DNA of 64,000 nucleotides. It comes from an uncultured virus (IMG/VR IMGVR_UViG_3300018478_000073) (Duplodnaviria; Heunggongvirae; Uroviricota; Caudoviricetes). A program made the translations under genes and the position numbers. Below are positions 6,047 through 59,957 of the stretch, in pieces. Below the pieces are notes generated by a model, which worked only from the letters and a program-made list of their open reading frames with translations, searched no databases and was not told the origin of the DNA. The stretch is from the IMG/VR virus record IMGVR_UViG_3300018478_000073; one strand, written 5' to 3'. Position 1 is the stretch's first letter. Each line of letters begins with the position of its first letter.

Positions 6047-6075
6047 TTGACATCACCTAATCTTAATGGTATAAT
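6047..6075 (+). promoter_or_regulatory. SigA promoter for topoisomerase B subunit gene
   Basis: TTGACA-17-TATAAT, TG extension. Confidence 0.85.
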
Positions 6076-14372: not shown

Positions 14373-14726
14373 ATGAGTCTTGCAGACATTGCTAATAAGG
14401 CATTAAAGTCTGAAATACGAGGTTTGGTACTTGATAACACTGTGATAGGATTTAGAGTAAAGTGTTATGATGTAAAAACTGATAATTACATGTATTTTGA
14501 TTTCGATGCGGATATAGTAAGAAATATACCTGAGTTGTATCAGTTTTTTAAAGATAATATAAAGTCTTTTAATACTTCACGTCTCATACGAAAAAATGGA
14601 ATGTTGTATACGAGTGAAGAATTAAGAGGTATTTATAACTCTAAAGAACTTGTATCTGCAGACGATACAGTAAGGGTATTAAGACCTGTAATATTGCTTT
14701 ACAAGAGGGGGTATCTGAATGTATAG
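14373..14726 (+). CDS. Hypothetical protein
   Basis: AGGTG RBS; ORF. Confidence 0.65.
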   Translation: MSLADIANKALKSEIRGLVLDNTVIGFRVKCYDVKTDNYMYFDFDADIVRNIPELYQFFKDNIKSFNTSRLIRKNGMLYTSEELRGIYNSKELVSADDTVRVLRPVILLYKRGYLNV

Positions 14727-30585: not shown

Positions 30586-32160
30586 ATGAAAAAGACAGTT
30601 GTTTGCCTTTTAACCGCAGTTACAATAGTGAGTACTTGTTTAGCACCAGTAACAGTATTTGCTACTGACAATGATACTACGGTTGAGAAGGCAAAATCAG
30701 ATGATTCTAAGGCAGACAAGGAAACAAACGAATCCAAGTCAGGCAGTAATGAGTCAGAAGATTTGCGTAGTGAGTCCGAGAAGAATGAGCCGACTAAAGA
30801 TGAGTCGAGTGAGGATAAGGACGAGAAGCCAAAACCAGATAAGGATACTGGTAAGGAGGAAACTACTTCAAAGACATCTTTTAAACCTAATGATAACTTG
30901 AGTGCAGTCAAGGAGTACATGTGTTCATTCATTGAACCAGAAAATGGGTATTGGGGTGCTTATCTTGCAAGACAGGGATTTATACCTATCGGCTTCAAGA
31001 AAGAGGGCACGTCTAACATAGAAGGTAAAAAGAATGTATACCTATACCCGAAGGTAACATACACAGGGTATAATGCTTCAGTAGACTATGCAGATGTAAC
31101 CATTGGAGAGGATGACAACATTAAAGACGATAAGGTAAATGCCACACTGAATAAGTGGTATTCTATCGATGGTGTCGAAGATATGTCTAGTTTGAATGAG
31201 TATGTCTTAAAAAATAAAGATAAGCTCCAAAAGACAAAGGCTGACACATATGTAGGGTTCTCAACTTATAGAAATGCTCTTGATTGTGTAGATGGTATCA
31301 TAATTTACACAGAAGGGGGTAGTTACGTAGGGACAATCGCCGTTGACACAAAAGACGGTTTTACGGAGTTATATGATGAGGATTTACTAGTCAAGAAAGA
31401 TGGTAAAATCGAGTTATCAGAGCCAGTGTTAAGTAAGGATGCGAAAAGTGTTACAATGCACTTCTCATATGACTATGAGAACAGTCCTGCGGTACTCGGA
31501 GAAGAGAAGTTAATTTCATTTGAGATTAAGACAAAGGATGGGGGTATCTATCTTGATGGTGTAGACACATCAGACTTAATTTATAGAAATAAACTTACAA
31601 AAGGTACTACAAAGGACTTTGAAATCAATGTTAATGGTAGTTATGTATTAGAGGTAAATTCGTCAACACAGAAAATTAAAGTACCTTTCAGGGTATCTGG
31701 AATTAAGTATGACGTTGATGAAAGTACACAGAATAAAAAAGCGCCTAAGATTTCATACGGTGAGTTACCTAACGGAATCTTAAAGGGTACACCATATCAG
31801 ATTAAGGTATTTACAGACGTAGAGACAAGTGTTATCTTTAATGGTGAATCAGATGGTATTGTAGCAAAAGAGCATACATTTACAGTAAAGGGTAATGGAA
31901 CTTACAGTGTAGTAGCAACATCTAAGGATGGTGCGGAATCTGTTGATAGCGTAAAAATCAGTGGCTTTGTTGATGATGTAAGCGCAATCAATTTGAGTGC
32001 TTATGGAGATGGAGGTACAGGTATTTTACCGCAGACAGGTGGTATTGCGACAGTAGTAGGTGTAATTTCTGGGTTCTTAGCAGTGGCAGGGGGTATCTTG
32101 TTATTTAAGAAAGATTCCATAGTTACATGGTTAAGAAAAAGAAAGAAGGTGTCAAAATAA
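30586..32160 (+). CDS. LPXTG cell-wall-anchored surface protein
   Basis: Signal peptide ending VFA; C-terminal LPQTG + TM + RKRKK. Confidence 0.9.
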   Translation: MKKTVVCLLTAVTIVSTCLAPVTVFATDNDTTVEKAKSDDSKADKETNESKSGSNESEDLRSESEKNEPTKDESSEDKDEKPKPDKDTGKEETTSKTSFKPNDNLSAVKEYMCSFIEPENGYWGAYLARQGFIPIGFKKEGTSNIEGKKNVYLYPKVTYTGYNASVDYADVTIGEDDNIKDDKVNATLNKWYSIDGVEDMSSLNEYVLKNKDKLQKTKADTYVGFSTYRNALDCVDGIIIYTEGGSYVGTIAVDTKDGFTELYDEDLLVKKDGKIELSEPVLSKDAKSVTMHFSYDYENSPAVLGEEKLISFEIKTKDGGIYLDGVDTSDLIYRNKLTKGTTKDFEINVNGSYVLEVNSSTQKIKVPFRVSGIKYDVDESTQNKKAPKISYGELPNGILKGTPYQIKVFTDVETSVIFNGESDGIVAKEHTFTVKGNGTYSVVATSKDGAESVDSVKISGFVDDVSAINLSAYGDGGTGILPQTGGIATVVGVISGFLAVAGGILLFKKDSIVTWLRKRKKVSK

Positions 32161-35100
32161 ATGAAGAGTTTACTTAAAAGGCTTGGTTTAGGCTTTGTAC
32201 TTATGCTGACACTATTATGCAGTTCAATTACTGCTTTTGCAGGTAGTGGAGATGGTGGTTCAGGTGGCTCAGGTGGTAATGGTGGTGGAGCTACAGGAGG
32301 TTCATGGTGGCCGTATTGTTACGGTGTAACAATCAATCTGATGCAGAGGCAAGACTTGCTTGTAGCAGGGGGTATAAACCCAGCTAACGCTGATGCATAT
32401 AGAAATTACAGTAGTGGTATAACATTTCTATTAGATGGTGTAACGAAACAACCAGTTACTAATTTAGATGAGTTAGTTAACAATGCAGGTCTAACGAGAC
32501 GTGGTTCTCATATTTCAACAGACTTAAGCAGATTGGACTACTTATTCCCAGGTCATACTGGTCACTTAGGTGCTGCTATTACAAGGATACATGCAGTACA
32601 AGGTGATTTAGCGGTTACTAATAATTATTACTTTGACTTTAAGACACTTGCGGACACATTCAATAACGTATTAGCACCACAGAAAGGTAATACAATGTTG
32701 TATGACTCAGACCAAAGACGTGAATTTTACAGACGCTTTAAGTCATTAGTACCAGATGTAACGATGTCAGAGGAAGACTTTATGACAAAGAAGGGGGTAG
32801 TTGTAGTTTACCCTGTGGTTGGTTACACAAATATCAATGGTGGTGGAAGTAATGTATTTATGACATTCCCACAGGCATGGCAGATAAATCAGTCAGATAA
32901 GGATAAATGGGGTGGTTTATTCCAAAGATTATACTCTGGAAGTATAACATCATTAGGACGCCCAGGTACTGTTGCCGCCCAACTTCAGACTGCTATAGGT
33001 ACGTACAGAAATGTATTCGACCTAAATATGAATCCAATCGATAATAATATCGATTATAACTGGTTAATGAATAATGATTTCTACTTTAATAAGTTAAATG
33101 ATGGGTTCAGACTTGGTTTTGCAGTATATGGTAACGAGTACAAAGGCGAGACAAAGGCTTCAACAAACCTCATGGTTAAGGCAACACAGAATGACGATGG
33201 CTCATACGATTTGGATGCTAAAGCTTCTATGATATCACAGGAAAAAGGTGATATGCCAGTAGATGAATCATTAAAGAATGGTACAACTACAAATAACAAC
33301 ATCAAGGGCGGTCAGTCAGATAACGGCGGTAATGTACCTACACTTGTAACCAATGTTAAGTCAAGTGATACAGATGGCTACAAGACATATGCCTATGGTT
33401 CATTTTTACTGAAAGGTAGTGGAAACATCAATTCAAGTGCAAACTTGAATGAGATGAGAAAATTCACAGAGGGTACTAAGATTCAAGCAAATGAGTCAAC
33501 AGTATCAAGTGGAAACTTCAATGGGGGTAAAACTTACAAACCAGCATATAAGAATAAAACTCCGATTGAGGCGGCTCAGTACTTTGCAAGTTCTACATTT
33601 GGAGGAAATGCTGAAAAAATAGTACAAAGCATGTCTGGTATTGACGGTGCTGAGGTAAGAAACATTGCTTACAACTTGACAGCTATGGCAAACAATAAGA
33701 GTAAAGTTTCTTCAGCTAAGATTGATGCTACTAACGGAGCAACTGCAGGAAATGGAGATATTAAACTATCTGGACAGGAACAGAAGGTTGGTATGGCGGT
33801 AGAATATGTTTACAAGTCAAAACCTATTAAGTCCTATATTTCTTTTGCAGAGATTACTTATGATAAGGATATAAACAGTAGCTTTAAAGTTCAGTCAAAT
33901 GATACAGTAGACCACACATTAGCGGAAGAGGGTAATTTTACAATCAACAAAGACCGCTATATGGTTGCTATCGTACCTAATTCAGATACAAGTAATGGTC
34001 TTGATAACAATAAAGACTATGTATGGAATAAGGTAAAAGATAGTATCAAACAGGGTGAAGTATTTGATACAACAGATTTTAAGGGTGTTATAGATACTGT
34101 AACAAGAAATAATACTGTTTCAGAAGGTACTACAAATGGAGCTACAGTAGCAGTTGGAGCTAATAAGGGTAAAGGTTACAGTGTTTATGTTCTTGTTGTT
34201 AACGCACCAGATTCAGTAGATATTAAAGCTGATGTTGAGTTAAAAGACTACCAGTTAAATAAGGTAGCATTAGATATGCTTGCATCAAGAAAAGCAGTGA
34301 TTACAAACAGTGGAGAGTTAGTATCTAGCGGTAAGATTGGTGAGTATGAGTGCAGTATAGGTCAAGGAAGACATCCTATTTTTGGAGAGACTTCCAAGTA
34401 CAAGCTATATTCTTCATCACCTCAGGGTGGAAAAACAGTGGATGTAGCGACAAGTACTCCAGAAAAACTTGTTTATTATAACTCATTGTTAGGTAGCTCA
34501 TACACATTAGCGCAGGTAAATGGGGGTATCAATAATATCGATGGTTCAGAGCCAAAGAGATACACATATGCGTTTAACCTGTCAAGAGGTATCTTTGGTG
34601 ATACACGAGTTATCTCAGCTTTAAGCTCAAATCAGTTAAATAAGCAAGATAAAGATGCATTACTCAATACACACAAGCATAAATACGGTATTACTGCGGA
34701 AAAAGTCATTGAAGCGAATCCAGAAAGAGATTCAAACGCTAAGATAGTTGATGGAGTATATGATACATTAGTGTTCAACTCAGCATGGATGAATGGGGGT
34801 AAATCTCCTAGTGGAATCAAGACATTGACTCATAAAGGTATTGTCGATACAGAGGATGGTAAGACTGAGGTAACAGAGAAATACAAGTCAGAGGCAGAAA
34901 GTGGAGCAAGACCTCTTAAAATGAATGGGTTAGCAGTATATCAAGTAAACGTTAAGTTGAATGAGACTATACACAAGTATAGTACAGGTGTCATGGAAAC
35001 CGGTATCAACAAGCATGTAGCTAGTGAGAATGATAAAAAAGCTCACAAGGTAGACTTTACTGAGCCAACAAACTCGTTTAGCGGTAACAAAAAGCCGTCA

Positions 35101-36528
35101 GACATCAAGAAATCTGATAAGTATACTTACAGATATTCATTTGTAGCTAATACGAGTGGAAAACCATTAAGTTTTGTACCTGAGGTAAGAATGAGAGCGT
35201 ACTTCACAAATGGTAGTGATACCATAAAAGGGGGTACTGTTATTCCAAGAACTATTCTTACAATGGCAGAAGAGGTACGTAAAGTTAAACCAAGTACACT
35301 GTATGTAACAACGGTAACGAAGAAGCAGGACAATGCAGTAACAGGTGATAAAAATGTAACATTACATTCGGATACAATGGCAACTGGAACTAATGCAAGT
35401 AAGGCTAAGGGTAACAACTTACCAGTAATCTATGGTGGTTCAGATGTTACATTAAGCATTAAGGATTCAGACTTCCAAGTAAATATGCATGGTTACACAT
35501 TAGACCTCATCAACAAAGAAAAAGATGGTGGTGGTATGTTACTCGGAAATGGAAAGACACTTCCATATAATGCTATTGTAAATGATACAAGTTTCGACCC
35601 ATATAAGACATGGGGTAATACAGATTCCGCAGATAAGGCACTGGAAGATTACAAAAAGTGGACAGAAAGTATTGCTAAGAGTCTTAAGGTAGATATGACA
35701 TTACGTGTAACAAAAGCTGATAGCGGAGAGGAACACAAGTCATTCAATAACTTCAATGTATCACAGGGTAAAGCTCAGATGCTTACACTTGGAGAAGATG
35801 GTAAGGTTACAGGTAAGGAAGACTTCAAAGCAGATACGGCAACAAAGCAGGAGGGGGTATTCCCACTCTATGTAAGACGTGGAGAGCTTGCTAAGTCAGC
35901 AAGTGACCCAATGGCACAGGGATATAATGCATTAATTCAGGCTATTAAGTCTGATTATGGTGTAGATGATGCAACTGCTTCAAAGATTTTTGAAGAGTCA
36001 GATTTGTACAAAACTATCTGCAGAGCCGTTGAAGATACGAAAGATGACATAAACAAGTCGCAGAAAGTTGATACATCTGAGAATGGAGCACATGCAGTAA
36101 GGTCAGAAGACCAGGATGATAACTGGTATGATGAAGAGGTTAAGACATTTGTCGTGAGACGATTCACTACAAAGCCAGTAACAATCAACGATATTATCTT
36201 ATCTGACAAACTTGACTACAACATTGCACCAGACAGTACAAAGGGTAAACGCTCAAGTGGAGAAACAGGAAGAGGTCAGAGCAATGCACAGCAGACAGAG
36301 TACAAAACAAATCATGGTCAGTGGTTCATGACATTGTACTTAGATAAGGAAGGTCTTAAAGATAACAGTCTGTACGAGGGTATGACATTCTATAATCCGA
36401 AAGATGGTGAAGTAGATAGGTCTAAAGATTACTACAGGAATGGTACGGTACTTATCGATAAAGAGTATGTAGGAAGTAAGGCAGACTTCAAAGTACCTAG
36501 TGCATCCACAAGCGATATGCTTAAATAA
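32161..36528 (+). CDS. Large secreted protein, 1455 aa
   Basis: Signal peptide ending AFA, Gly-rich linker, long beta-rich-looking body; no LPXTG. Confidence 0.85.
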   Translation: MKSLLKRLGLGFVLMLTLLCSSITAFAGSGDGGSGGSGGNGGGATGGSWWPYCYGVTINLMQRQDLLVAGGINPANADAYRNYSSGITFLLDGVTKQPVTNLDELVNNAGLTRRGSHISTDLSRLDYLFPGHTGHLGAAITRIHAVQGDLAVTNNYYFDFKTLADTFNNVLAPQKGNTMLYDSDQRREFYRRFKSLVPDVTMSEEDFMTKKGVVVVYPVVGYTNINGGGSNVFMTFPQAWQINQSDKDKWGGLFQRLYSGSITSLGRPGTVAAQLQTAIGTYRNVFDLNMNPIDNNIDYNWLMNNDFYFNKLNDGFRLGFAVYGNEYKGETKASTNLMVKATQNDDGSYDLDAKASMISQEKGDMPVDESLKNGTTTNNNIKGGQSDNGGNVPTLVTNVKSSDTDGYKTYAYGSFLLKGSGNINSSANLNEMRKFTEGTKIQANESTVSSGNFNGGKTYKPAYKNKTPIEAAQYFASSTFGGNAEKIVQSMSGIDGAEVRNIAYNLTAMANNKSKVSSAKIDATNGATAGNGDIKLSGQEQKVGMAVEYVYKSKPIKSYISFAEITYDKDINSSFKVQSNDTVDHTLAEEGNFTINKDRYMVAIVPNSDTSNGLDNNKDYVWNKVKDSIKQGEVFDTTDFKGVIDTVTRNNTVSEGTTNGATVAVGANKGKGYSVYVLVVNAPDSVDIKADVELKDYQLNKVALDMLASRKAVITNSGELVSSGKIGEYECSIGQGRHPIFGETSKYKLYSSSPQGGKTVDVATSTPEKLVYYNSLLGSSYTLAQVNGGINNIDGSEPKRYTYAFNLSRGIFGDTRVISALSSNQLNKQDKDALLNTHKHKYGITAEKVIEANPERDSNAKIVDGVYDTLVFNSAWMNGGKSPSGIKTLTHKGIVDTEDGKTEVTEKYKSEAESGARPLKMNGLAVYQVNVKLNETIHKYSTGVMETGINKHVASENDKKAHKVDFTEPTNSFSGNKKPSDIKKSDKYTYRYSFVANTSGKPLSFVPEVRMRAYFTNGSDTIKGGTVIPRTILTMAEEVRKVKPSTLYVTTVTKKQDNAVTGDKNVTLHSDTMATGTNASKAKGNNLPVIYGGSDVTLSIKDSDFQVNMHGYTLDLINKEKDGGGMLLGNGKTLPYNAIVNDTSFDPYKTWGNTDSADKALEDYKKWTESIAKSLKVDMTLRVTKADSGEEHKSFNNFNVSQGKAQMLTLGEDGKVTGKEDFKADTATKQEGVFPLYVRRGELAKSASDPMAQGYNALIQAIKSDYGVDDATASKIFEESDLYKTICRAVEDTKDDINKSQKVDTSENGAHAVRSEDQDDNWYDEEVKTFVVRRFTTKPVTINDIILSDKLDYNIAPDSTKGKRSSGETGRGQSNAQQTEYKTNHGQWFMTLYLDKEGLKDNSLYEGMTFYNPKDGEVDRSKDYYRNGTVLIDKEYVGSKADFKVPSASTSDMLK

Positions 36529-42480: not shown

Positions 42481-42509
42481 TTGACATAATATGATATTTA
42501 TGGTATAAT
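42481..42509 (+). promoter_or_regulatory. SigA promoter
   Basis: TTGACA-17-TATAAT, TG extension. Confidence 0.85.
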
Positions 42510-45004: not shown

Positions 45005-45033
45005 TTGACAACATATGAGATTTATGTTATAAT
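45005..45033 (+). promoter_or_regulatory. SigA promoter
   Basis: TTGACA-17-TATAAT, TG extension. Confidence 0.85.
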
Positions 45034-45442: not shown

Positions 45443-46597
45443 TTGGGTAAGAGATGTAAAGTAGAGGGCAGAAAAAGTTGGACTAAGGCGGATAAGGAAT
45501 TTGTTCTTATAAAATCTAACGGAAGATGCTGTCATTGTGGTAAGAAGCTGTCTATAGATGATGACTTTACATTTGAGCATGTAATTCCGCTATCAAAGGG
45601 TGGTAGTAATAGGCATGAGAATATTGTAGCTCTATGTAAGTCTTGCAACTATGATAAGGCAGATTGTATCGTAGACCCAGACAGATTTTATAAGTACCTA
45701 AGCAATGAGTATTTAAAAGAGGTAGAGCAGTTATATAGAGATTACTGCGATACTTATAGTTATTTCAATTCGCAGAATTTGTTATCTGAGGATATCATAA
45801 CAATAGATACTGTATCACAGATTGTATCTTCTAATCTTTCGTATAGTAGACGTAAGAAGTGTATTACTGGTAGTCACGGTGCTAAGGTTATAAGCAAGAG
45901 CTTCAGAAAAGCAATATACTCAGATTTAGATGATATATACAATTACTACTTACCATCACACAAGAAGGAGGGGGTATCGACATCTACTTTAAAGGAGTGG
46001 ATGAGTATAGTGTTTTTGAGGGGTTGCTTTTATATACTAAGAAATAGGGTAAATGATATAGTAATGGTAATTCCAGTTTTAGTCTGCCACTCAATTTATA
46101 AAGATGTTAGCGGTAATGAGTATGTACCTAGGGTATTCATATACAGGTTTTCATGTAAGTATACGAAGCCAGACTACAGTATTTTACTAGTAAAGTTTCT
46201 ACTAAAATTAGGGGGTAATGTAGCGAAAAACTTAGGCATAAAGGATATAGAGATAAATGCTATAGGTAGCACCTGCGAGGGTACATATATGGACGTAGTT
46301 AAGATAGATTCATCAGGTTACAGAGTTCTAGGTAATTTGACTTTATCTGTATATTTATTTGATGACGTACAGGAAAGGTTAAGAGTTAGTAAAACAAGTT
46401 CTGAGTGGGTAAATAATACCAATTTATGTGTGTATGATAATGATGAGGTATACTCACTTGAAAACAATAAGGACGAAACAAGTAGCTTAAGGTGTAAATT
46501 AGGTAAAATCGATACACTTACTAGCACAGCAATACGCGATTGTGTTAAAAGTAATGTATATTTATCTGAAGACTTTAAAACTCTGGAGGTAAGGTAA
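45443..46597 (+). CDS. HNH endonuclease domain protein
   Basis: CCHCG...EHVIPLSKGGSN...NIVALCKSCN. Confidence 0.85.
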   Translation: MGKRCKVEGRKSWTKADKEFVLIKSNGRCCHCGKKLSIDDDFTFEHVIPLSKGGSNRHENIVALCKSCNYDKADCIVDPDRFYKYLSNEYLKEVEQLYRDYCDTYSYFNSQNLLSEDIITIDTVSQIVSSNLSYSRRKKCITGSHGAKVISKSFRKAIYSDLDDIYNYYLPSHKKEGVSTSTLKEWMSIVFLRGCFYILRNRVNDIVMVIPVLVCHSIYKDVSGNEYVPRVFIYRFSCKYTKPDYSILLVKFLLKLGGNVAKNLGIKDIEINAIGSTCEGTYMDVVKIDSSGYRVLGNLTLSVYLFDDVQERLRVSKTSSEWVNNTNLCVYDNDEVYSLENNKDETSSLRCKLGKIDTLTSTAIRDCVKSNVYLSEDFKTLEVR

Positions 46598-47055
46598 TGG
46601 TAGTTTATTTTGAAAATACACAAGATAATTTATTAAGTGACAAGTACATGTCATTATTTACATTAGACGGCAAGAAATTTTTCTGCGTTTATCAATATAG
46701 GATTTATAGAAAGGCTTTAGCCTTTGGTAATTACTCTTTAGCAAGAAAAGTTTTATCTTGTAAGGATGTAGAAAGTGTAGAGAAAGTTGAAAGAAGGTTA
46801 AGGGTTTCTGATTATGAGAATAAATCTTGGGTAGTTACAGAGAAGTATGTAGAACTAGAGGGGGTACTAAGAAAATTTTTTACAAATAAAAGGTTAGCAT
46901 CTAAGTTAATGAATTATGGTGTAAATGATGTGTTCGCATGTTGTGATAAAAATATTAACATTGGCATAGGAACTAATAAGAAGGTTTGGATAGGTAGTAA
47001 TATTTGTGGACAAGCATTAAGTTTTGTTAGAAAGGAGCTTACATATGGATTTTAG
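46597..47055 (+). CDS. NADAR (YbiA-like) family protein, divergent
   Basis: LLSD.Y...FTLDG..F.CVYQY; KFFTN..L; GIG....W.GSN.CG.AL..VR. Confidence 0.65.
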   Translation: MVVYFENTQDNLLSDKYMSLFTLDGKKFFCVYQYRIYRKALAFGNYSLARKVLSCKDVESVEKVERRLRVSDYENKSWVVTEKYVELEGVLRKFFTNKRLASKLMNYGVNDVFACCDKNINIGIGTNKKVWIGSNICGQALSFVRKELTYGF

Positions 47056-47533
47056 GGTAAGGTTTAATAAACCATATGGAGAGTATGGATATTTATCCAA
47101 TCATTATCTATCAGATATGGAAATAGGGGGTATTAAGTTTGTGAGTGTGTATCAGTACTTATTATATAAGACAGCTATTGAGAATGGTATGCGTAATGTT
47201 GCACGTGAGATACTTAGTACATCCGATGATTTAGAACTGAGGAAATGTTCCTATCGAAATCACCTAAAAGGGGGTACTAAGAAAGCACTGACTTACATGA
47301 CTGATGGAATAAGGTATAAGTTTGAAAGCAATCAGTACCTAATGAAGAAATTTGTTGGTTTGCCAGATAATACAGTATTCTTATATTGTAATTGTGACAG
47401 GGTATTAGGTACTGGTTTATTGGAGACAGAGAGATACTGCATTTATGAGGGTAGTTGGACTGGGCGTAATCTACTTGGAACAATAATGAGTTCATTATTA
47501 CAGGAGTACAAAATGGAGGTAGAAAATGCGTAA
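47045..47533 (+). CDS. NADAR (YbiA-like) family protein
   Basis: YLSNHY, F.SVYQY, KFESN, DRVLGTG, WTGRNLLG.IM. Confidence 0.8.
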   Translation: MDFRVRFNKPYGEYGYLSNHYLSDMEIGGIKFVSVYQYLLYKTAIENGMRNVAREILSTSDDLELRKCSYRNHLKGGTKKALTYMTDGIRYKFESNQYLMKKFVGLPDNTVFLYCNCDRVLGTGLLETERYCIYEGSWTGRNLLGTIMSSLLQEYKMEVENA

Positions 47534-49322
47534 ATTTTTCAAAAAGTACAGAAAAAAGCTGACAATGGTCGTTGTCGGCTTAATTCTATTATACGTATCT
47601 GTAGACTTAACCTTGACTGAGTTAAACAAGCCAATGGTAGTGTCTTACAAGACATTTGAGAAAGACTTAAAGAATGATAAGATAGACACCGTGTATTACA
47701 ATGTAAATTCAGAGTACATGAGGTACACTTTAAAGACTAAAAAGTCAATGAGTCTGTCAGAGGAAGAATCACAAGATTATACAGAGAAAGATAAAAGTAA
47801 GTGGAGGATGACATATTATCCAGCAGACCAAAACTTTAGAAAAGACCTATTAAAGAAGGGGGTAAAGGTTAAAATAGCATCATTTGAGGCAACTTCTATG
47901 GTGATACTGACTGGTGTACTACCACTTTCTGTAGGTGTTTATTTTATCGTTGCGTTGCTTATGATGTTGCGTAGAAGTACAAACCCTACTGGCAGTAAAG
48001 ATGATTTGATACAGACATCTAAGGTAAAATTTAGTGATGTTGTAGGTCACGATGAGATTATTGAGGATATAAGATTTATTGTAAGTTTACTAAGAAACCC
48101 TACCTTAGGTAAGGATTTAGGTATTAAGATACCAAGAGGTATATTATTTACTGGTGAGCCAGGTACAGGTAAAACATTATTAGCTAAGGCTATTGCAGGA
48201 GAGGCAGAAGTACCATTTATATACATAAATGCAAGTAGTTTCGTAGAGATGTATGTAGGGTTAGGAGCAAAGCGTGTGAGAGACGCTTTTAAATTAGCTA
48301 GGAAGCATAAGCCTTGTATAGTATTTATAGACGAGATAGATGCAGTAGGGGGTAGTAGAGGTGATTCTTCATCACACTCAGAGCAGACTCAAACACTTAA
48401 CGCATTACTACAGGAACTTGATGGGTTTAGCACAGAGTCAGGTATAGTTGTAATAGGTGCAACAAACACCCCAGAGAAACTCGATAAGGCTCTGGTAAGA
48501 GCAGGAAGATTCGATAGAAAGGTAGTTATAAGCCCACCTAAAGATTGGAATGCCAGAAAGGCAATATTTGAGCATTATTTGAGAAACAAGCCAGTAAGTA
48601 ATTCGGTAGATATTGATGCAGTTTCAAAACAGGTATCTGGGTTTACTGGTGCTGATATTGAGTCATTAGTAAATGAGGCATGCCTAGTATGCGCCTTAAG
48701 AGGGGGTATTGAGTTAGAAAAGCAAGACTTTGAAGAAGCTATTGATAAGGTAGTATTTAATGGTAACAGAAGTAAAGACCAAAGCAAAGATATGGACAGA
48801 AAGATTATAGCTTATCATGAGGCAGGTCATGCAGTAATGAGTTATCTATGTGGCATACCAATAGCAAGAGCTAGTATCATAGGTACTACAAGTGGAGTAG
48901 GAGGTGCAGTTTTTCAAGAAGATGTAGATAGTCAGTTCTTAACTGACGAGGATTTCATAAAACGTATAAAGATAAGCTATGGGGGTAGAGCATCAGAATA
49001 TATTATATTCGGTAAGGTTACTACAGGTGCATCTAACGATATTACACAGGCTACAAGGTTAATTCAAAGCTATGTACAGAGGTATGGTTTTGATAAAGAC
49101 TTTGGTTTGTTAGACATGGGGGTATTAGACAGGTACATTGATACAAATGAGATAGTATCAAAGTACTCAGAGATAAGTATCAAACTATATAATGATACGG
49201 TTGATACCTTACTTAGCAATAAAAAGTTAATAATCGCACTTGCTGAGGATTTACTTATAAATGAGACATTATCTGGAGATTACATTGAGAACTTGTTTAA
49301 CTCATTGAGAAGTACAAAGTAA
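47526..49322 (+). CDS. ftsH: FtsH ATP-dependent zinc metalloprotease
   Basis: 2 TM; GEPGTGKT, FIDEID, RAGRFDR, HEAGH, GASND. Confidence 0.95.
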   Translation: MRKFFKKYRKKLTMVVVGLILLYVSVDLTLTELNKPMVVSYKTFEKDLKNDKIDTVYYNVNSEYMRYTLKTKKSMSLSEEESQDYTEKDKSKWRMTYYPADQNFRKDLLKKGVKVKIASFEATSMVILTGVLPLSVGVYFIVALLMMLRRSTNPTGSKDDLIQTSKVKFSDVVGHDEIIEDIRFIVSLLRNPTLGKDLGIKIPRGILFTGEPGTGKTLLAKAIAGEAEVPFIYINASSFVEMYVGLGAKRVRDAFKLARKHKPCIVFIDEIDAVGGSRGDSSSHSEQTQTLNALLQELDGFSTESGIVVIGATNTPEKLDKALVRAGRFDRKVVISPPKDWNARKAIFEHYLRNKPVSNSVDIDAVSKQVSGFTGADIESLVNEACLVCALRGGIELEKQDFEEAIDKVVFNGNRSKDQSKDMDRKIIAYHEAGHAVMSYLCGIPIARASIIGTTSGVGGAVFQEDVDSQFLTDEDFIKRIKISYGGRASEYIIFGKVTTGASNDITQATRLIQSYVQRYGFDKDFGLLDMGVLDRYIDTNEIVSKYSEISIKLYNDTVDTLLSNKKLIIALAEDLLINETLSGDYIENLFNSLRSTK

Positions 49323-49413: not shown

Positions 49414-49633
49414 ATGAGTCTATATGGTTATACTGTTTATGGAGATGATTCTTTTTGGTAGCCTGCATACTATCGTAGGTGTACTACAGTCAAGTAGTAT
49501 TGAAGATGCAAAGGAGTTACTAAGAGGTATGTATTCTAAAGATGTTAAGATATCTGGTATCGATGTATACGAGATTCAGTTTGGTAGTGAGGCATCTGTA
49601 CTTACATTATCTGATTCTTGTCAAGATTGGTAG
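49414..49633 (+). pseudogene. Small gene with a probable +1 frameshift in a T run
   Basis: ATG 49414 has good RBS spacing but stops after 15 aa; removing one T from 49452-49456 joins it to the 49424..49633 frame. Confidence 0.45.
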
Positions 49634-49710
49634 ACTCGTAGGAAAAGGGGGTATCAAGCTATTAAGCCCTGTAGTTATTAACATAGTCAAGTTATAAAGG
49701 AGATTTTATT

Positions 49711-50175
49711 ATGAACAATTTAATGAGAGATTTTAGCGATTCAGATTACAATAAAATTATTGGTATGTTTAAATATCAGTGTAAGAAATATGGCATGAGG
49801 TACAGACTAGGAAAGTTTAACGGTGAATGTCATGTAACTGTAAGGACAAGATATGAAGAGTTTTCATTTGACGTAGAGAGCAATTTGTATGTAAAGCAGA
49901 TGTATCACAGGAGCATTACAGAGAGAGGTTCTCACAAGCAGTTTACATCAGACCTGCCAGAGCCTTTAACTGTAAATGAGACCTTTAAGTACATCAATAA
50001 GCATACGAGAACGAAGTATGAGGGTAAAAAGTTGTACAGAAAGACTAATGTCGATAGAAAGGTAGAGAATTATCAGGGTATTGATAAAAAGTCTGGGGGT
50101 GGAGTGTACAACGGCAGGAGAAGTAACAATACATATGGAAGACATTCAAAACAGCAGAGAAGATATTTGAAGTAG
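49711..50175 (+). CDS. Basic hypothetical protein
   Basis: AAGGAG RBS; followed by terminator. Confidence 0.75.
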   Translation: MNNLMRDFSDSDYNKIIGMFKYQCKKYGMRYRLGKFNGECHVTVRTRYEEFSFDVESNLYVKQMYHRSITERGSHKQFTSDLPEPLTVNETFKYINKHTRTKYEGKKLYRKTNVDRKVENYQGIDKKSGGGVYNGRRSNNTYGRHSKQQRRYLK

Positions 50176-50206
50176 AAAGGGGGTACATCAGTACCCTCTC
50201 TTTTTT
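50174..50206 (+). terminator. Intrinsic terminator
   Basis: AGGGGGTAC/GTACCCTCT + TTTTTT. Confidence 0.8.
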
Positions 50207-50302
50207 AATTTCAAGGTAATAACCTCTGCTTGTATAAACTACGAGATTACAATGATGTATAGTAAGGAATCAAAGAATTTTAAATTTATTTTTGATATAT
50301 TA

Positions 50303-50331
50303 TTGACAATACTTGTATTCTGTGGTATAAT
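50303..50331 (+). promoter_or_regulatory. SigA promoter upstream of the large ncRNA
   Basis: TTGACA-17-TATAAT, TG extension. Confidence 0.85.
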
Positions 50332-50337
50332 GTAAAA

Positions 50338-50990
50338 GTAATTTTATCTGGTAAGGTGATTCAATTCATACTTACTTATTTAATATATCGAGTTTGTTAG
50401 ATTGCCTAGTACTAACAATGTAGGTATATTGATATATGACTAACTCGGTGAAGAGGTGTTTATCAGCACTGCCGAGATATACCAGTTAATAGGCACACTA
50501 TACTATTGAGATATTGGTTTTATAGTGTGTTGGGTGTATAGTGATGTATACCCAGTATATTTGGAACAAATGTATCATTCTGGTATAGTACACATTATGG
50601 TTTAATAAAAGGTAGTATCCTTTCGCCAGTGAAATAGACGCTTGCGGTGCAAGAATAATCCTTTGATGTTTGAGGTAAGGGAGACCACGAACTAGGAGGA
50701 AGTTTCCGAATAAGCTGGTTTGCCTTGATAACTCAGAAGTGAGAGTATAAGAAAGAGATATGTACTGGTAGCGAAATGGCAGGATAGTACGAAAGTACAG
50801 ATATGGATAGTGAATTCCAGAACAATCTGAATGATTCGTGAAGGTAGGGGGTATTAATCCCCTCTGTGCAAGACAAGGGCGAGAAGCGTAGGAGCGTACA
50901 ACCTACTGCTCAGACTCGTTCTCACAGTGACTGAATATTATTATATCATAGTGAGGTGTACTCTGAATAAAAGGAGAGTCATGTATAATC
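50338..50990 (+). ncRNA. Large structured ncRNA, ROOL-like
   Basis: About 650 nt with no ORF of 60 aa or more; GC-richer than other intergenic DNA; nested long-range helices 50432-41/50977-86, 50588-600/50946-61, 50616-30/50764-86 plus many local hairpins; tRNA nearby. Confidence 0.75.
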
Positions 50991-51010
50991 AGGCTTAATG
51001 GGGGTATATT

Positions 51011-51244
51011 ATGGTTTCATTAGAGAATAGAAATGTATTACTTATTTACAATTCTAAAAGGGTTACGTACTCTGATAGTGATATTTTAATAGAAGATTCC
51101 ATTGAGCAACAGGAACATCCATACGCGCTATATGATACACGAGGAAATATATTAGAGACTAATTTATGTTGTTGTAAAGCTCCATTAAAAGACATATACG
51201 ATTGGACACTGGAGTCTGCGTTAATGTTAATGGAGGGTTTTTAA
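51011..51244 (+). CDS. Hypothetical protein
   Basis: GGGGGT RBS. Confidence 0.6.
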   Translation: MVSLENRNVLLIYNSKRVTYSDSDILIEDSIEQQEHPYALYDTRGNILETNLCCCKAPLKDIYDWTLESALMLMEGF

Positions 51245-51245
51245 A

Positions 51246-51524
51246 ATGCCTATTGTGTATGAAGTTTTCGGTTTTAAGGTCTATTATTGGCTCAGTGATA
51301 ATACAGAGCTTGTTCATTTTTATATTTCAAAGAATAAGATTGTTAGAGACAGTACAAAATTTTTAATCAATTCAGATGGTAAGATTTCACTTTTATGCAA
51401 TAAAGGAAACTTTGTTGAGACTGAACTAAGACAGCTTATAATGTGTTTGTATTCACTAAATATGAATAGAATAATTTTAAGAGATTGGTTTAATTATTTT
51501 GGAACATTAAGATTTAAAAAGTAA
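51246..51524 (+). CDS. DUF4160-like protein
   Basis: MPIVYEVFGFKVYYW..D..E.VHF N-terminus; C-terminal W..YFG. Confidence 0.55.
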   Translation: MPIVYEVFGFKVYYWLSDNTELVHFYISKNKIVRDSTKFLINSDGKISLLCNKGNFVETELRQLIMCLYSLNMNRIILRDWFNYFGTLRFKK

Positions 51525-51539
51525 TAAAGAATGTATTGG

Positions 51540-51564
51540 AGGACTACCAGGAGTAGTCCTTTTT
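51540..51564 (+). terminator. Intrinsic terminator
   Basis: AGGACTAC/GTAGTCCT + TTTT. Confidence 0.8.
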
Positions 51565-51654
51565 AATATTATATTTTAGAGTTAAGGTATAAAATTACAT
51601 ATAAGATACTTATTACCTAAGATTAGTGTTAATATATAAAGTATGAAGTATAAA

Positions 51655-51728
51655 GTACCGTTAGCTCAGTTGGTAAGAGCATTCGGCTCATAACCGAACG
51701 GTCGTAGGTTCGAGTCCTACACGGTACA
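51655..51728 (+). tRNA. tRNA with CAT anticodon, most likely tRNA-Ile2 (lysidine); CCA not encoded
   Basis: Acceptor GTACCGT/ACGGTAC, D-arm GCTC/GAGC, anticodon arm TTCGG-CTCATAA-CCGAA, T-arm GTAGG-TTCGAGT-CCTAC. Confidence 0.93.
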
Positions 51729-51820
51729 TTTTAATGATTGAGATTAGATGCACTAATATTTGTATGGAGAATATCGAGTTAACAAAGGATACAAGGTAAA
51801 TAGTTAGTAAGATAGGGTAT

Positions 51821-51845
51821 AGCCAGACTTTTTGTCTGGCTTTTT
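51821..51845 (+). terminator. Intrinsic terminator after tRNA
   Basis: AGCCAGAC/GTCTGGCT + TTTT. Confidence 0.8.
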
Positions 51846-51909
51846 ACATAGGGGGTATATGAGAGTATCATATTGTTTTTTAATAAGTAATTAACTTATT
51901 AAGAAGCTA

Positions 51910-51938
51910 TTGACATATAGCGAGAAATATGCTATAAT
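51910..51938 (+). promoter_or_regulatory. SigA promoter
   Basis: TTGACA-17-TATAAT, TG extension. Confidence 0.85.
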
Positions 51939-52019
51939 AGTATTATAGTTAAACAACTGTACAATCATTAGGTATAGTAAGTAAGGTAAGAAATAATGAT
52001 TTTATTAGGAGGATTGAAG

Positions 52020-52253
52020 ATGAATAAAATAGAGTTTAAGAAGTCAAAAGAGTATAAGGATGCTGTTGAAAAAATCAAAGGTTACTCTAAGGGGTTCAAG
52101 TTCACACTGCCTTATTACAAGATGACACAAGGTCAGAAAAATGCAATGAATATTGTTACAAGAGATTGTATGAGTGATAAGATTATTGAAAGTATTTCAT
52201 TAGGGTTGGATTTGAATGGAGACATAACCGAGGAGACATTTGTTAGGTTGTAA
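52020..52253 (+). CDS. Hypothetical protein
   Basis: AGGAGG RBS before ATG 52020. Confidence 0.7.
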   Translation: MNKIEFKKSKEYKDAVEKIKGYSKGFKFTLPYYKMTQGQKNAMNIVTRDCMSDKIIESISLGLDLNGDITEETFVRL

Positions 52254-52279
52254 AATATAAATTATGGGGGTAAAATAAG

Positions 52280-52447
52280 ATGCTTAGATGCTTGATTGAT
52301 ATGTCAGTTCCAGAGAATGGTAAGTGTGCAAAATGTTGTATTAACTGTAACGAGAAAGACACATGTAAAAATCGTTGTATTGGTATTGACGAGTGGAAGA
52401 CAGAGGATAATATTGCTAAAAATTGTATTGAGTGTATGGAAGTGTAA
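52280..52447 (+). CDS. 55-aa Cys-rich protein (absent from ORF track)
   Basis: GGGGGT RBS; MLRCLIDMSVPENGKCAKCCINCNEKDTCKNRC...CIECMEV*, 9 Cys. Confidence 0.65.
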   Translation: MLRCLIDMSVPENGKCAKCCINCNEKDTCKNRCIGIDEWKTEDNIAKNCIECMEV

Positions 52448-52485
52448 GTAAGATGAAAGCACGATTTTGTATGGGGGTATAGTTT

Positions 52486-52851
52486 ATGATTAAGTTTGAA
52501 AATACAACGGGAAAAGAATCTTTTGAAAACACAATGAATTTTCAAGATTTAAAAATAAGACCTATTCAACCATTATATGATAATCAAAAGCAATGGAATA
52601 TTACAGATCGTTTTGGAAATGAATGGAATCTAGTGTTTAGTGGAGATGTAAATGAGTTTTACTTATACAATATTCCGCATTATGGTTGTGATAAACCATT
52701 CAGAGTTGATTTTTGTATGAGTAAAAATAATATAGAGATACATAGAGCATTAAAGAATGGAAAAAATATTGTATCTGATAGACTATTAAAACAATTCTCG
52801 CAATTAATTTTAATGGTGAGTTGCTTTTATAAATTTGGATATATGAAATAG
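52486..52851 (+). CDS. Hypothetical protein
   Basis: GGGGGT RBS. Confidence 0.7.
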   Translation: MIKFENTTGKESFENTMNFQDLKIRPIQPLYDNQKQWNITDRFGNEWNLVFSGDVNEFYLYNIPHYGCDKPFRVDFCMSKNNIEIHRALKNGKNIVSDRLLKQFSQLILMVSCFYKFGYMK

Positions 52852-54988: not shown

Positions 54989-56059
54989 ATGCGTTCAGCA
55001 AGTGATTTAGATGCAATATTAACAGAGGCAGTAAAATTAGGTGCAAGTGATGTACATCTAGCAACTGGTTGTAAACCAAGGTACAGATTGTATGGTAAGA
55101 TTACAAATATGGACTATGCAGATTTAACAGACTTAGATACTCAGGCTTTAATTATGCCGTTACTTGATGCGTTAGCAAGGTCAGAGTTACACACAAAAGG
55201 TCAGGTAGACTTAGCACATAGTATACAGGGGGTAGCTAGGTTCAGGGTAAATGTATTTATGCAGAAAGGTGCGTTAACGGGGGTATTCCGTATATTAGCA
55301 TCTGATGTACCAGATTATTCAAAGCTAGGTTTGCCACTATCAGTTTTCAATTTGCAGAATAAGAAGCGTGGCTTAGTGTTAGTTGTTGGTGCTACAGGCT
55401 CAGGTAAGTCAACTACACTAGCCAGTTTAATTGATGCAATCAACAAGAATCACTACAAAAACATAATAACATTTGAAGACCCAATAGAATATCTACACTG
55501 GCATGCCAGAAGTATTGTAAATCAGAGAGAAATAGGTACTGACTGTAAAGACTTTAGTGCAGGGTTACGAGCTGCATTACGTGAAGACCCAGATGTAATA
55601 TTGATAGGTGAGATGCGTGACTTAGAGACAGTTGATACAGCATTGACAGCAGCTGAGACAGGTCATTTAGTATGCAGTACCCTGCACACAATGGGGGTAG
55701 CTGATACGGTAAACCGTATTGTAGACATGTACCCAGAGAGACAGCACAGGCAGGTACGAAGCATACTGACAAGTGTACTTGAGGCAGTTGTAGCACAGCA
55801 GTTACTACCAAGAAAAGACGGGAGGGGGTATGTTGTAGCATATGAAATTCTATACAAAAATAATGAGATTAAAAGATTATTAAGAGAAGGTCTTATAGAT
55901 GATATTAACGAGTATCTTAGAACTGAAGAGGCTAAAGTAGATGGTATGTGCAGTATGGATGACACAATAGAGAAGCTATACAAGAAGGGGGTAATTACTA
56001 GGGACGTAGCCTTAGATTACGCATTTGACAAAAAGGGTATGATGAGCAGGTTAAAGTAA
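54989..56059 (+). CDS. pilT: PilT/PilU-family type IV pilus retraction ATPase
   Basis: GASDVHL, RFRVN, GATGSGKSTT, EDPIE, LREDPDVILIGEMRD, AETGHLV.STLH, EIKRLLRE (AIRNLIRE-like). Confidence 0.92.
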   Translation: MRSASDLDAILTEAVKLGASDVHLATGCKPRYRLYGKITNMDYADLTDLDTQALIMPLLDALARSELHTKGQVDLAHSIQGVARFRVNVFMQKGALTGVFRILASDVPDYSKLGLPLSVFNLQNKKRGLVLVVGATGSGKSTTLASLIDAINKNHYKNIITFEDPIEYLHWHARSIVNQREIGTDCKDFSAGLRAALREDPDVILIGEMRDLETVDTALTAAETGHLVCSTLHTMGVADTVNRIVDMYPERQHRQVRSILTSVLEAVVAQQLLPRKDGRGYVVAYEILYKNNEIKRLLREGLIDDINEYLRTEEAKVDGMCSMDDTIEKLYKKGVITRDVALDYAFDKKGMMSRLK

Positions 56060-56262: not shown

Positions 56263-56291
56263 TTGACAAGTATTGAGATATATGTTATAAT
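56263..56291 (+). promoter_or_regulatory. SigA promoter
   Basis: TTGACA-17-TATAAT, TG extension. Confidence 0.85.
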
Positions 56292-56753: not shown

Positions 56754-56806
56754 GTATAAAGATTTCCTAGGATGCAGTATATTATTACTGAAAGTTGGTG
56801 ATTAAA

Positions 56807-57958
56807 ATGTATATAAGGGACAATATACATGGAGATATAGAGTTCAGTCCATCAGAAATTAAGGTTATACAAAGTAAGTATTTCCAGCGTCTAAGAAATA
56901 TTAAGCAGTTAGCTTTTGCGGATTTTGTATTTCCATCTGCTACGCACACAAGGTTTATACATTCACTTGGAGCAGTAAAATGCGTAACTGATATGTACAA
57001 TGCAGTATGCAAGAATAATCCGTCATTTTATAGAGATGGTGATTTACCTCTTTTAAGAATGATAGCATTAGTACATGATATGTGTCATGCACCATTCAGT
57101 CATGCAAGCGAGGAGCTTAGTACGATAGAGCATGAGGAGAGGTTAACTCAAGCATTAGAGTTACTCAAGGATGATATTGTAATACCTAACGCATATGGTA
57201 TCAGGTCATGGGAGTTAGTAGACCAAGTGTATCAGGGGTATGGCACAACATACTTAAGAGACAAGCACTTGATGACATTACACAATTTCATGGATGGTTT
57301 TATAGATGCTGATAAGCTAGATTATCTGGAGAGAGATGCTTTGAATTGTGGTGTAAAGTATGGTACTTTTGATAGGTTAGATTTAGTATCAAGTTTAACA
57401 GTACACAATGACAACATAGCAATCACATCAGAGGGGGTATCAGCCTTAGAGAGTTTTATACTTGCAAGGTATTATATGTTTAAAGAGGTGTATTTCCATC
57501 CAGAAGAGCGTATGATGCGTAATCTGTACTGTGAGGAGATGAAAGGTTTATTAAAGGAGGGGGTATTCCCAGAAGAACCAAAGAAGTTTTTAGCATTAGA
57601 TGACACAAAGTTCATTCACAGGTTAAAGTGTGTGAAAAGCAATCCATATGTTTTGGTGCTAGATGTTAATTTTGATTTAGAGTTAAAGAATTACATAGAC
57701 AGGTATTTATCTGACTATTTAATATGTGATTGCCCTAGAAAGACCTTATTTAGGGCTAGTGACACAGACCAGAATATAGATGTAGTAGATACTGTAACAG
57801 GTAACGTAAGTTTATGTACAGACTATTCACCGATATTAAAAGGTATAGAGTTCACGAGTATACATAAGTTAAGATATTATACAGAACGTGATATTGAGAA
57901 AGAAATGCAAAGAGAAATAGGAAAGGTGGTCAAGAGATTTTATGAGAACAAGAGATGA
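56807..57958 (+). CDS. HD-domain phosphohydrolase (YwfO/SAMHD1-like dNTPase family)
   Basis: RDNIHG, FQRLRNIKQL, HTRFIHSLG, LVHDMCH.PFSH, DADKLDYL.RD. Confidence 0.9.
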   Translation: MYIRDNIHGDIEFSPSEIKVIQSKYFQRLRNIKQLAFADFVFPSATHTRFIHSLGAVKCVTDMYNAVCKNNPSFYRDGDLPLLRMIALVHDMCHAPFSHASEELSTIEHEERLTQALELLKDDIVIPNAYGIRSWELVDQVYQGYGTTYLRDKHLMTLHNFMDGFIDADKLDYLERDALNCGVKYGTFDRLDLVSSLTVHNDNIAITSEGVSALESFILARYYMFKEVYFHPEERMMRNLYCEEMKGLLKEGVFPEEPKKFLALDDTKFIHRLKCVKSNPYVLVLDVNFDLELKNYIDRYLSDYLICDCPRKTLFRASDTDQNIDVVDTVTGNVSLCTDYSPILKGIEFTSIHKLRYYTERDIEKEMQREIGKVVKRFYENKR

Positions 57959-58830: not shown

Positions 58831-59043
58831 ATGCCAGAGGTTGGTGATATTATTCGATGCATTAGTGGCAGAAAAATTGGTGAAAGACTATTTATTGAGG
58901 ACATAGTAATTAAGGAAAGTAAGAAGTACTATCAATGCAGTATTATATGCACTGGTTTATTCGATACCGTTTCGCCAGTATCTAATAAAGTTGAAGTATC
59001 TGATGCTGATTTTAGAGAATTTTGTATAGTAGAGGAGAGGTAG
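58831..59043 (+). CDS. Hypothetical protein
   Basis: GGGGGT RBS. Confidence 0.6.
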   Translation: MPEVGDIIRCISGRKIGERLFIEDIVIKESKKYYQCSIICTGLFDTVSPVSNKVEVSDADFREFCIVEER

Positions 59044-59045
59044 CA

Positions 59046-59957
59046 ATGTTAGTACAGGAATTTGTCGAAAGACAGTTAGACGGGTTTCCAGAACCGTTTT
59101 ATGACAGTTTGCCAACGGTTTGTTTAGAGGATGGGTGTGGTTATCCTACGGAGATGTTAGAGTCATTAACTCAGTTAAGATGTAGCAACCCAAGATGTCC
59201 ATCAAAGGTAGTCCAGAGAATGTCTGCAATGGTAAACAGACTTGGGGTAAAAGACTTTGGTGAGGAGAGAATAAGAGCATTTGTTAGTGAATGGGGTATT
59301 GCGAACCCACTGATATTATTTGCCTACGAGCCATCTGATGGTCAGTTAGCCAGTAATATTTCAATGGACTTAAGTACAAAAATTTACAATCAGATTAAGG
59401 ATAAAAAGGACTTTACGTTATCAGAGTATGTAAGAATTGCAAATCTCCCTTACATTCAAACAAGTGCAGGGTATATATTTGACAAGTTCGATGATATCAG
59501 GGAGGCATACAGGGCAATAGAAGAAGGGGGTATTGATTACATACAAAAATGCTTAGGGGTAAAGAAAGTAAGTGAGCCATCTTTAATGTCTATCAAGGTA
59601 TATACATCTTTAATGACATATAAGCATGACTTAATCGATTTAGTAGACCAAGTACACATTATAGAAAGAAACAAGGGAGACATGTTAAACTACAAGGTAT
59701 GTGTATCTGGTGATGTGGATTGTGGTTTCAAGACTAAGGCAGAGTTTTATAGAGAAGTTAACTCATTAAGTGATAAGCTACATGTAGACTTCTTAGGTTC
59801 AGCCACGAAAGAGATTAAGTATCTTGTCTGGGCAGGTAACAGGATTACTAATAAGGTAGTATCTGTACAAAAACGTATTGCAAATGGTGAAGATATTAAG
59901 ATATTAAATGCAAATGAGTTTATTGCAGAAATGAAAGAGAAGTTGGAGGTAGTATAG
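59046..59957 (+). CDS. ligA: NAD-dependent DNA ligase, C-terminal half (C4 Zn finger, HhH, BRCT)
   Basis: PTVC...GCG...LRCSNPRCPS; LGVKDFGE (HhH); KVCVSG...SATKEIKYLV...K...IKILN..EF (BRCT). Confidence 0.8.
   Translation: MLVQEFVERQLDGFPEPFYDSLPTVCLEDGCGYPTEMLESLTQLRCSNPRCPSKVVQRMSAMVNRLGVKDFGEERIRAFVSEWGIANPLILFAYEPSDGQLASNISMDLSTKIYNQIKDKKDFTLSEYVRIANLPYIQTSAGYIFDKFDDIREAYRAIEEGGIDYIQKCLGVKKVSEPSLMSIKVYTSLMTYKHDLIDLVDQVHIIERNKGDMLNYKVCVSGDVDCGFKTKAEFYREVNSLSDKLHVDFLGSATKEIKYLVWAGNRITNKVVSVQKRIANGEDIKILNANEFIAEMKEKLEVV

Follow-up and report, generated by a model that had tools for sequence, protein, structure and literature searches.

A divergent ROOL RNA gene behind a consensus promoter on a large phage-like element

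Which RNA, if any, is encoded by a long, strongly folded and ORF-free stretch of viral metagenome sequence? The question arises from a 64,000-nt sequence of an uncultured virus (IMG/VR record IMGVR_UViG_3300018478_000073; this whole stretch is called the window below), in which an earlier note described a consensus promoter followed by about 650 nt lacking an ORF, proposed a large base-paired RNA of the ROOL type and left room for a new class. The lack of coding capacity is confirmed: no plus-strand ORF of at least 40 aa is found between 50176 and 51010, and the sole ORF of this interval encodes 47 aa on the minus strand (50733-50876). The strand has a minimum free energy (MFE) of -173.6 kcal/mol (z -5.84), far below that of shuffled sequences, and none of 100 shuffles folded as well.

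Infernal comparison of the window with 4227 Rfam families aligned the complete ROOL model (RF03087, positions 1-574 of 574; Weinberg et al. 2017, PMC5737381) to 50420-50993 on the plus strand, with 263.2 bits against a gathering score of 99.1 and an E value of 5.4e-59. Size and an ornate fold would by themselves permit another large RNA class (GOLLD, a group I or II intron, RNase P, tmRNA or a self-cleaving ribozyme cassette), or indeed the new class considered in the earlier note. However, the scan of the whole 64-kb window at gathering scores returned ROOL and tRNA only, and beyond these a permissive scan of 50150-52000 (E ≤ 5) added three chance-level rows, none of them a ribozyme, intron, RNase P or tmRNA; GOLLD likewise had no match in either scan. 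The full-length model match and the absence of other Rfam families thus place the RNA in ROOL rather than in a new class, and the chance that one of these other assignments is right appears negligible. The ROOL label, which the earlier note had reached by inference, is thereby borne out by the covariance-model comparison named there (ROOL, GOLLD, introns, RNase P, tmRNA), in which ROOL was matched and the others were not.

We are highly confident that the locus as a whole is best explained as a ROOL gene on a phage-like element, with transcription predicted and a cage proposed by analogy. The segment 50420-50993 is a divergent but ordinary ROOL, and the family is already well described. It resembles other members in its full-length model match, its size (574 nt, with a family mean of 581), its multi-junction architecture, the invariant motifs, the linker held in a conserved hairpin, the phage-like setting and the same-strand tRNA nearby; the setting close to a tRNA, pointed out before, fits the family. 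The motifs AAUAGACGC..GAAUAAUCC, UUUGCC, GUAGC, UCUGAA, GUGAA and GCUCAGAC are all present, the list of invariant columns being drawn from a 19-sequence alignment that includes the window copy, so that it carries them by construction. The bit score is among the lower ones: of 18 IMG/VR representatives, 16 reach 335-391, and only L077 (264.9) and L016 (221.3) are comparable.

When the RF03087 pairs were transferred to the window, 127 of 159 were canonical, 25 were non-canonical and 7 had one side deleted. Two helices are better placed in another register than in the Infernal alignment. The outermost helix P1 forms 10 of 10 pairs at 50432-41/50977-86, as in the MFE structure, against 7 of 16 in the alignment, and in the helix 50876-83/50915-22 all 8 pairs form in the register of the MFE structure, whereas the alignment gives 4 of 9. 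These corrections raise the canonical pairs from 127 of 152 aligned model pairs to 136 of 146. The corrected consensus-derived structure has an energy of -66.0 kcal/mol as compared with -173.6 for the MFE structure, with which it shares 79 of its 146 pairs; we take this gap to reflect the usual weakness of MFE prediction on long RNAs with tertiary contacts, and thus as evidence neither way. The main structural features of the RNA are the following.

50432..50441, plus strand: P1, 5' strand, the outermost closing helix (10/10 pairs with 50977-50986)
50588..50600, plus strand: second closing helix, 5' strand, consensus ATTATGG with a GTACAC extension (pairs with 50946-50961)
50633..50661, plus strand: most conserved ROOL core, AATAGACGC-N11-GAATAATCC, including the hairpin CTTG-CGGTG-CAAG (invariant columns)
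50659..50707, plus strand: hairpin with loop GGGAG (50679-83) and junction UUUCC (50703-07) able to pair with the loop (read by eye)
50776..50834, plus strand: loop of the linker hairpin, whose stem is GCGAA 50771-75/TTCGT 50835-39 (conserved flanks AUGGCA and UCUGAAUGA)
50886..50910, plus strand: apical hairpin of the long 3' arm, with the 9-nt loop AGCGUACAA (50893-50901) and the palindrome GUAC at 50896-99
50946..50961, plus strand: second closing helix, 3' strand, TCATAGT, GAG bulge and GTGTAC (model and MFE)
50962..50976, plus strand: usual place of the terminal hairpin, degenerate here, A-rich with at most three weak pairs (alignment and MFE)
50977..50986, plus strand: P1, 3' strand (pairs with 50432-50441)

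Of the four long-range pairings proposed earlier, comparison with the family bears out two. The outer pairing of ATATATGACT (50432-41) with AGTCATGTAT (50977-86) is real, coincides with the MFE pairing and covaries among relatives (alignment columns 12-22 with 692-702). The proposed GTACAC-ATTATGG/TCATAGT..GTGTAC pairing holds in part: ATTATGG (50594-600) with TCATAGT (50946-52) is a consensus helix with 7 of 7 pairs, whereas GTACAC (50588-93) with GTGTAC (50956-61), although predicted in the MFE structure, is absent from the family consensus and would be a 6-bp extension specific to the window. Although their strands are complementary, TATCCT/AGGATA, TTCGC/GCGAA and CAGT/ACTGG do not belong to the family structure, and relatives do not conserve them; the model instead joins 50615-24 to 50751-61, 50625-30 to 50714-19, and GCGAA 50771-75 to TTCGT 50835-39. 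The last helix covaries, reading GCGGT/ACCGT in 15 of the 18 relatives and GCCCA/TGGGT in two, with 4 of 5 pairs formed in L077, and TTCGC, tried as the partner of GCGAA, keeps only 1-3 of 5 pairs across the same 18. Similarly, TCATTC/GAATGA is complementary here, but in each of the 18 relatives only 1-4 of its 6 pairs can form. All six local hairpins listed in the earlier note exist; five are consensus ROOL hairpins, and the sixth, GTAC-GAAA-GTAC (50787-50798), lies in the middle of the linker, which is variable and unalignable, with its conserved flanks and covarying stem present.

Loop-junction complementarities of the ROOL family were described in 2017 as pseudoknots and are now read as kissing contacts between subunits. 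Relatives mostly have UGAGA/UCUCA at these positions, L016 has GGCAA/UUGCC, and the window has GGGAG/UUUCC as read by eye, no single case being significant. A shuffle test of the loop-junction pairs gave p ≤ 0.05 in 0 of 48 cases, the automated test being unreliable since the tail was base-paired in the MFE structures of the window copy and of L004. The complementarity of UGCC (50721-24) with GGCA (50778-81) is present in the window and, being invariant, is uninformative about pairing.

The core motif alone retrieved 91 IMG/VR ROOL loci, which fall into 18 clusters, each with a full-length ROOL as its representative (221-391 bits). A MAFFT alignment of the window with these 18 representatives (19 sequences) was used to examine covariation. 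RNAalifold predicted 110 pairs from this alignment, and one or more compensatory changes were seen in 77 of these. For the window-derived structure (131 pairs), 70.0% of the cells are paired as compared with 62.5% in shuffled alignments, and 67 pairs change on both sides as compared with 41.3; neither value was reached in any of 500 shuffles. Slid controls of the same structure have 35-47% of the cells paired, a comparison in which the scored structure, being taken from one alignment row, has an advantage over its slid versions. The covariation figures themselves understate the fit, because MAFFT is not structure-aware and misaligns the 3' end of the window copy.

Close relatives of this copy were sought in several collections. 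The nearest IMG/VR ROOLs are about 70-77% identical, in pieces, and two motif scans of IMG/VR (91 and 70 ROOL loci) gave no close relative. The ROOL stretch had no blastn match among INPHARED phages, where the wider region was matched through its tRNA only, and no match in the plasmid collection PLSDB. In a loose motif scan of bacterial genomes, 2 of 120 loci were ROOL by nhmmer, with no copy from E. faecalis or L. salivarius among them, and the FtsH-like neighbour used as a query retrieved no related IMG/VR locus. The sole JGI metagenome contig with a window-specific 19-mer, L212, is a chance match that is not ROOL by Rfam and has no similarity to the window. As no close relative was found, the peculiarities of the window copy itself have no covariation support. 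In one other study, two wastewater runs contain read-length contigs that match 50388-50538, 50543-50692 and 50782-50931 at 0-3 differences, and the element therefore also occurs outside its likely source sample; the libraries are labelled as cDNA and rated as probably DNA, and show occurrence elsewhere only. Among the runs listed as containing the stretch, none is an RNA run. The flanking region 50986-51622 is without cover in the runs X2 and X3, which is uninformative either way.

Two peripheral parts of the RNA set this copy apart from the usual ROOL. In relatives, a terminal hairpin with a GNRA-type loop precedes the 3' strand of P1. The window copy does not form it and has 1 of the 3 pairs, whereas all 18 other representatives have 3 of 3 (columns 676-678/683-685). 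This hairpin is a peripheral element, and Infernal still aligns the full model here without it. Where it is lost, the neighbouring second closing helix is lengthened by the 6 bp mentioned above. The other difference concerns the apical loop, which has 9 nt (AGCGUACAA) rather than 4-5 and is unique among 72 distinct ROOL segments, in which the commonest loops are TCGCT (21), GACG (15) and TAGCT (8). A palindromic 4-mer occurs in the apical loop of 9 of the 72 segments; as it is no general rule of the family, the apical GUAC of the window is treated as a lead. We think, by a tentative mapping from the published text, that the 9-nt loop may correspond to the symmetric kissing loop between the halves of the solved cages (published L15/L18). 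If it is such a contact between subunits, assembly could differ or fail in this copy.

Such losses might be expected of a decaying, non-functional ROOL remnant, and the missing terminal hairpin, the odd apical loop, a bit score below that of most relatives and the two helices misaligned by Infernal can all be read in this way. The same structure argues otherwise once the registers are corrected, since 136 of the 146 pairs are canonical and a clean 6-bp extension of the adjacent helix offsets the lost hairpin. Moreover, every invariant motif is kept, a perfect promoter lies upstream, and fragments with 0-3 differences occur in two runs of another study. Decay is thus a most improbable explanation.

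The gene lies between a consensus promoter and a tRNA gene, in the following arrangement.

50178..50199, plus strand: terminator-like hairpin ending the upstream ORF 49711-50175 (9-bp stem, then a T run)
50303..50331, plus strand: sigma-70-type promoter with extended -10 (12/12 matches)
50338..50419, plus strand: putative 5' leader, its start placed by promoter spacing
50420..50993, plus strand: ROOL RNA, RF03087 (full-length model match)
51011..51244, plus strand: 77-aa ORF starting 18 nt after ROOL, with a GGGGG ribosome-binding site (no family match)
51246..51524, plus strand: 92-aa ORF abutting the 77-aa ORF (no family match)
51538..51562, plus strand: terminator-like hairpin after both small ORFs (hairpin scan)
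51655..51728, plus strand: tRNA-Met (CAT), no encoded CCA (Infernal and ARAGORN)
51821..51841, plus strand: terminator-like hairpin behind the tRNA gene (next perfect promoter at 51910-51938)

The promoter reported in the earlier note is a 12/12 match to TTGACA-17-TATAAT with the TG of an extended -10, and the start given there for the RNA, 50338, is the probable transcription start rather than the start of the ROOL model at 50420. Seven perfect TTGACA-N17-TATAAT promoters occur in the window (5788-5816, 6047-6075, 42481-42509, 45005-45033, 50303-50331, 51910-51938 and 56263-56291), all on the plus strand and all with TG, as compared with 0.08 expected by chance; they look like a strong host-type set that would divide the element into transcription units. 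Two hairpins are predicted for the leader together with the first nucleotides of ROOL (50338-50431; z -2.64), a fold equalled by 1 of 200 shuffles; the leader had no relatives in the collections compared.

Transcription would start near 50338 and run through the leader of about 82 nt, ROOL and the two small ORFs, probably reading through into tRNA-Met, which lies 662 nt downstream of ROOL on the same strand. The terminator-like sites in 49500-52500 are only those at 50178, 51538 and 51821, none of them between ROOL and the small ORFs, and no plus-strand promoter-like site is listed in 51562-51655. From these signals it is plausible that ROOL, both ORFs and tRNA-Met form one unit, from which ROOL would then be trimmed out or in which it would be kept as the 5' part of the transcript. 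As regards small self-cleaving ribozymes as a source of ROOL ends (theta ribozymes, PMC10879173), no Rfam ribozyme family was matched in 50150-52000 (E ≤ 5); the ends of the window ROOL would come from the promoter together with processing or read-through.

The close spacing raises the possibility that this sequence acts chiefly in cis, as a structured 5' leader controlling the translation or stability of the ORFs at 51011-51244 and 51246-51524, rather than as a separate RNA. Indeed, ROOL ends only 18 nt before a start codon with a strong ribosome-binding site, and nothing terminator-like stands between them. Neither ORF has a match in Pfam or PHROG. However, six neighbouring ORFs, including these two, have no relatives by tblastn in the flanks of the other ROOL loci compared, ROOL in relatives sits inside tRNA arrays or directly after its own promoter, and the family is conserved as an RNA regardless of its neighbours. 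A primary role as a leader of this kind is therefore very unlikely.

How common is such an arrangement? Counting the window, 126 distinct ROOL loci had sufficient upstream sequence for a comparison; ROOL starts were extrapolated from partly incomplete nhmmer matches, so the distances are approximate. A same-strand tRNA ends at most 60 nt upstream in 63 loci and lies within 800 nt downstream in 81, and tRNAs are found within 1.5 kb in 16 of the 18 ROOL representatives. A promoter with at least 11 of 12 matches is present within 250 nt upstream in 24 of the 126 loci, 18 of which, including the window, have no tRNA within 300 nt upstream. Promoter-driven ROOLs therefore represent a known minority arrangement. 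In contrast to the commonest setting, a tRNA array, the window ROOL has its own perfect promoter, a leader and two ORFs behind it, and, unlike the ROOLs that follow a tRNA, it has no upstream tRNA by ARAGORN. The leader is also longer than in the L222 group, in which about 16 nt separate the end of the -10 hexamer from ROOL, and no obvious fold common to the window leader was seen in the leaders of other promoter-driven ROOLs. A ROOL with a strong promoter of its own in front of protein genes bears on how ROOL ends are formed and on whether the link to tRNAs is essential.

Some individual loci deserve mention. In L242, a tRNA-like 'leader' with the T-loop-like motif GGUUCGAUACC and CCA near its end follows a perfect promoter about 130 nt upstream of ROOL and is not called by ARAGORN. 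The tRNA-Met (CAT) of the window, which may be an elongator Met or an Ile2 tRNA, has its counterpart in 37 phage records, with 90% identity over 70 nt to their tRNA-Met; 36 of these records are named Enterococcus phage (EF24C-like, about 140 kb), and nothing in 49400-52000 matches them beyond this tRNA.

What the RNA would do as a molecule can be judged from solved structures. The ROOLs of E. faecalis, of L. salivarius and of a rumen metagenome (env-120) have been determined by cryo-EM (PMC12286853, PMC12990946, PMC12191101; models 9MDS, 9J3T and 9J6Y are listed in PMC12990946). They form protein-free closed octamers or hexamers in which kissing loops and A-minor contacts join the subunits and a disordered variable linker is enclosed; the cages remain stable at nanomolar RNA, and tRNAs, ribosomes and others have been suggested in these papers as cargo. 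The earlier remark that these RNAs have no known function still holds, but it is dated as regards structure, since cryo-EM now shows RNA-only cages (PMC12286853, PMC12990946). The giant ornate phage RNA GOLLD, which forms cages of 14, 12 or 10 copies (same two papers), is similar in being large, ornate, phage-borne, often near tRNAs and of no known function, with RNA-only cages and a disordered internal linker. It differs from ROOL in its unrelated sequence and secondary structure and in its larger size, often above 800 nt. ROOL is among the very few natural RNAs known to build closed cages without protein.

By analogy with the three solved ROOLs, the window RNA would fold into a flat multi-junction monomer, and such monomers would self-assemble, with no need for protein, into a closed cage of identical subunits. 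This homo-oligomer would most likely be an octamer, joined by kissing loops and A-minor contacts, with the variable linker (about 50782-50825) pointing inwards. That the window ROOL forms a homo-oligomeric cage is the most likely outcome of this comparison; its stoichiometry is uncertain because the peripheral elements of this copy are altered. One could go further and regard the copy as a distinct structural subtype, defined by the lost terminal hairpin, the longer closing helix and the replaced, GUAC-bearing apical loop. If so, the stoichiometry or geometry of the cage could differ from the known octamers and hexamers. Given a promoter of its own and the lack of a terminator-like site ahead of the small ORFs, the cage-forming RNA might also remain attached to the mRNA for the two small proteins, each cage then carrying several copies of that message. 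We consider this reading as a whole unlikely. As a single copy the RNA adds little, its family assignment being routine, yet it may serve structural work as a natural variant that lacks the terminal hairpin and carries a different candidate contact loop.

To our knowledge, the biological role is known for no ROOL. The link of ROOL to tRNA genes across loci makes a translation-related role our first guess: the RNA might take part in the take-over of tRNAs and translation by the phage, for instance by holding or shielding tRNAs or ribosome-related factors. This is a tentative proposal, to which we would give clearly less than an even chance. A decoy for host defence or host RNases would be the next guess, and a more doubtful one.

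The carrier is probably a large, unclassified phage-like element, with a cattle-gut metagenome as its likely source; in the likely source run the stretch lies on a contig of 60,571 bases, the longest record having 98,409 bases. In the window, 50 of the 51 ORFs of at least 150 aa are on the plus strand, and the GC skew is positive throughout. The recognised genes encode topoisomerase II subunits, helicases, a primase, RNase H, a two-part NAD-ligase, HNH endonucleases, an FtsH-like protease and a T2SSE-type ATPase, and from this gene content the window looks like a replication or early region. Since no virion or structural gene was recognised in the 64 kb, we only infer that the element is a phage. 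For the 1455-aa ORF at 32161-36528 (plus strand), neither Pfam nor PHROG gave a match, nor did tblastn against 50,697 phage records, and the plus-strand ORFs at 543-2720, 14719-16965 and 30586-32160 have no family match.

The NAD-dependent DNA ligase is seemingly split between two plus-strand genes 37 kb apart (20699-22051 and 59022-59957), which match positions 8-333 and 391-655, respectively, of the 656-position PHROG ligase profile. The FtsH-like AAA protease (47526-49322, plus strand) is full-length, with FtsH_ext, AAA and Peptidase_M41 domains, and shares 33-40% identity with annotated FtsH genes of jumbo phages and bacteria. The adjacent, overlapping genes 46597-47055 and 47024-47533 (plus strand) are paralogues that both belong to phrog_1017, a PHROG family without assigned function. 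Just downstream of the ROOL unit, 54989-56059 and 56795-57958 (plus strand) encode a type II/IV secretion-family ATPase (T2SSE, E 3.2e-48) and a protein with an HD-associated domain.

Other RNA genes were also seen near ROOL in the relatives. A tRNA array that follows ROOL includes, at a distance of about 700 nt downstream, a tmRNA gene with the tag ARYQYQMAA* in L215 and L251 (1353-1652, minus strand; L004's contig, a 180-kb IMG/VR sequence). Finally, suppressor-type tRNAs occur beside ROOL with the anticodon CTA in L213, L246, L250, L252 and L269 and with TTA in L219; such tRNAs, reading TAG or TAA, hint that those phages may use a recoded stop codon.
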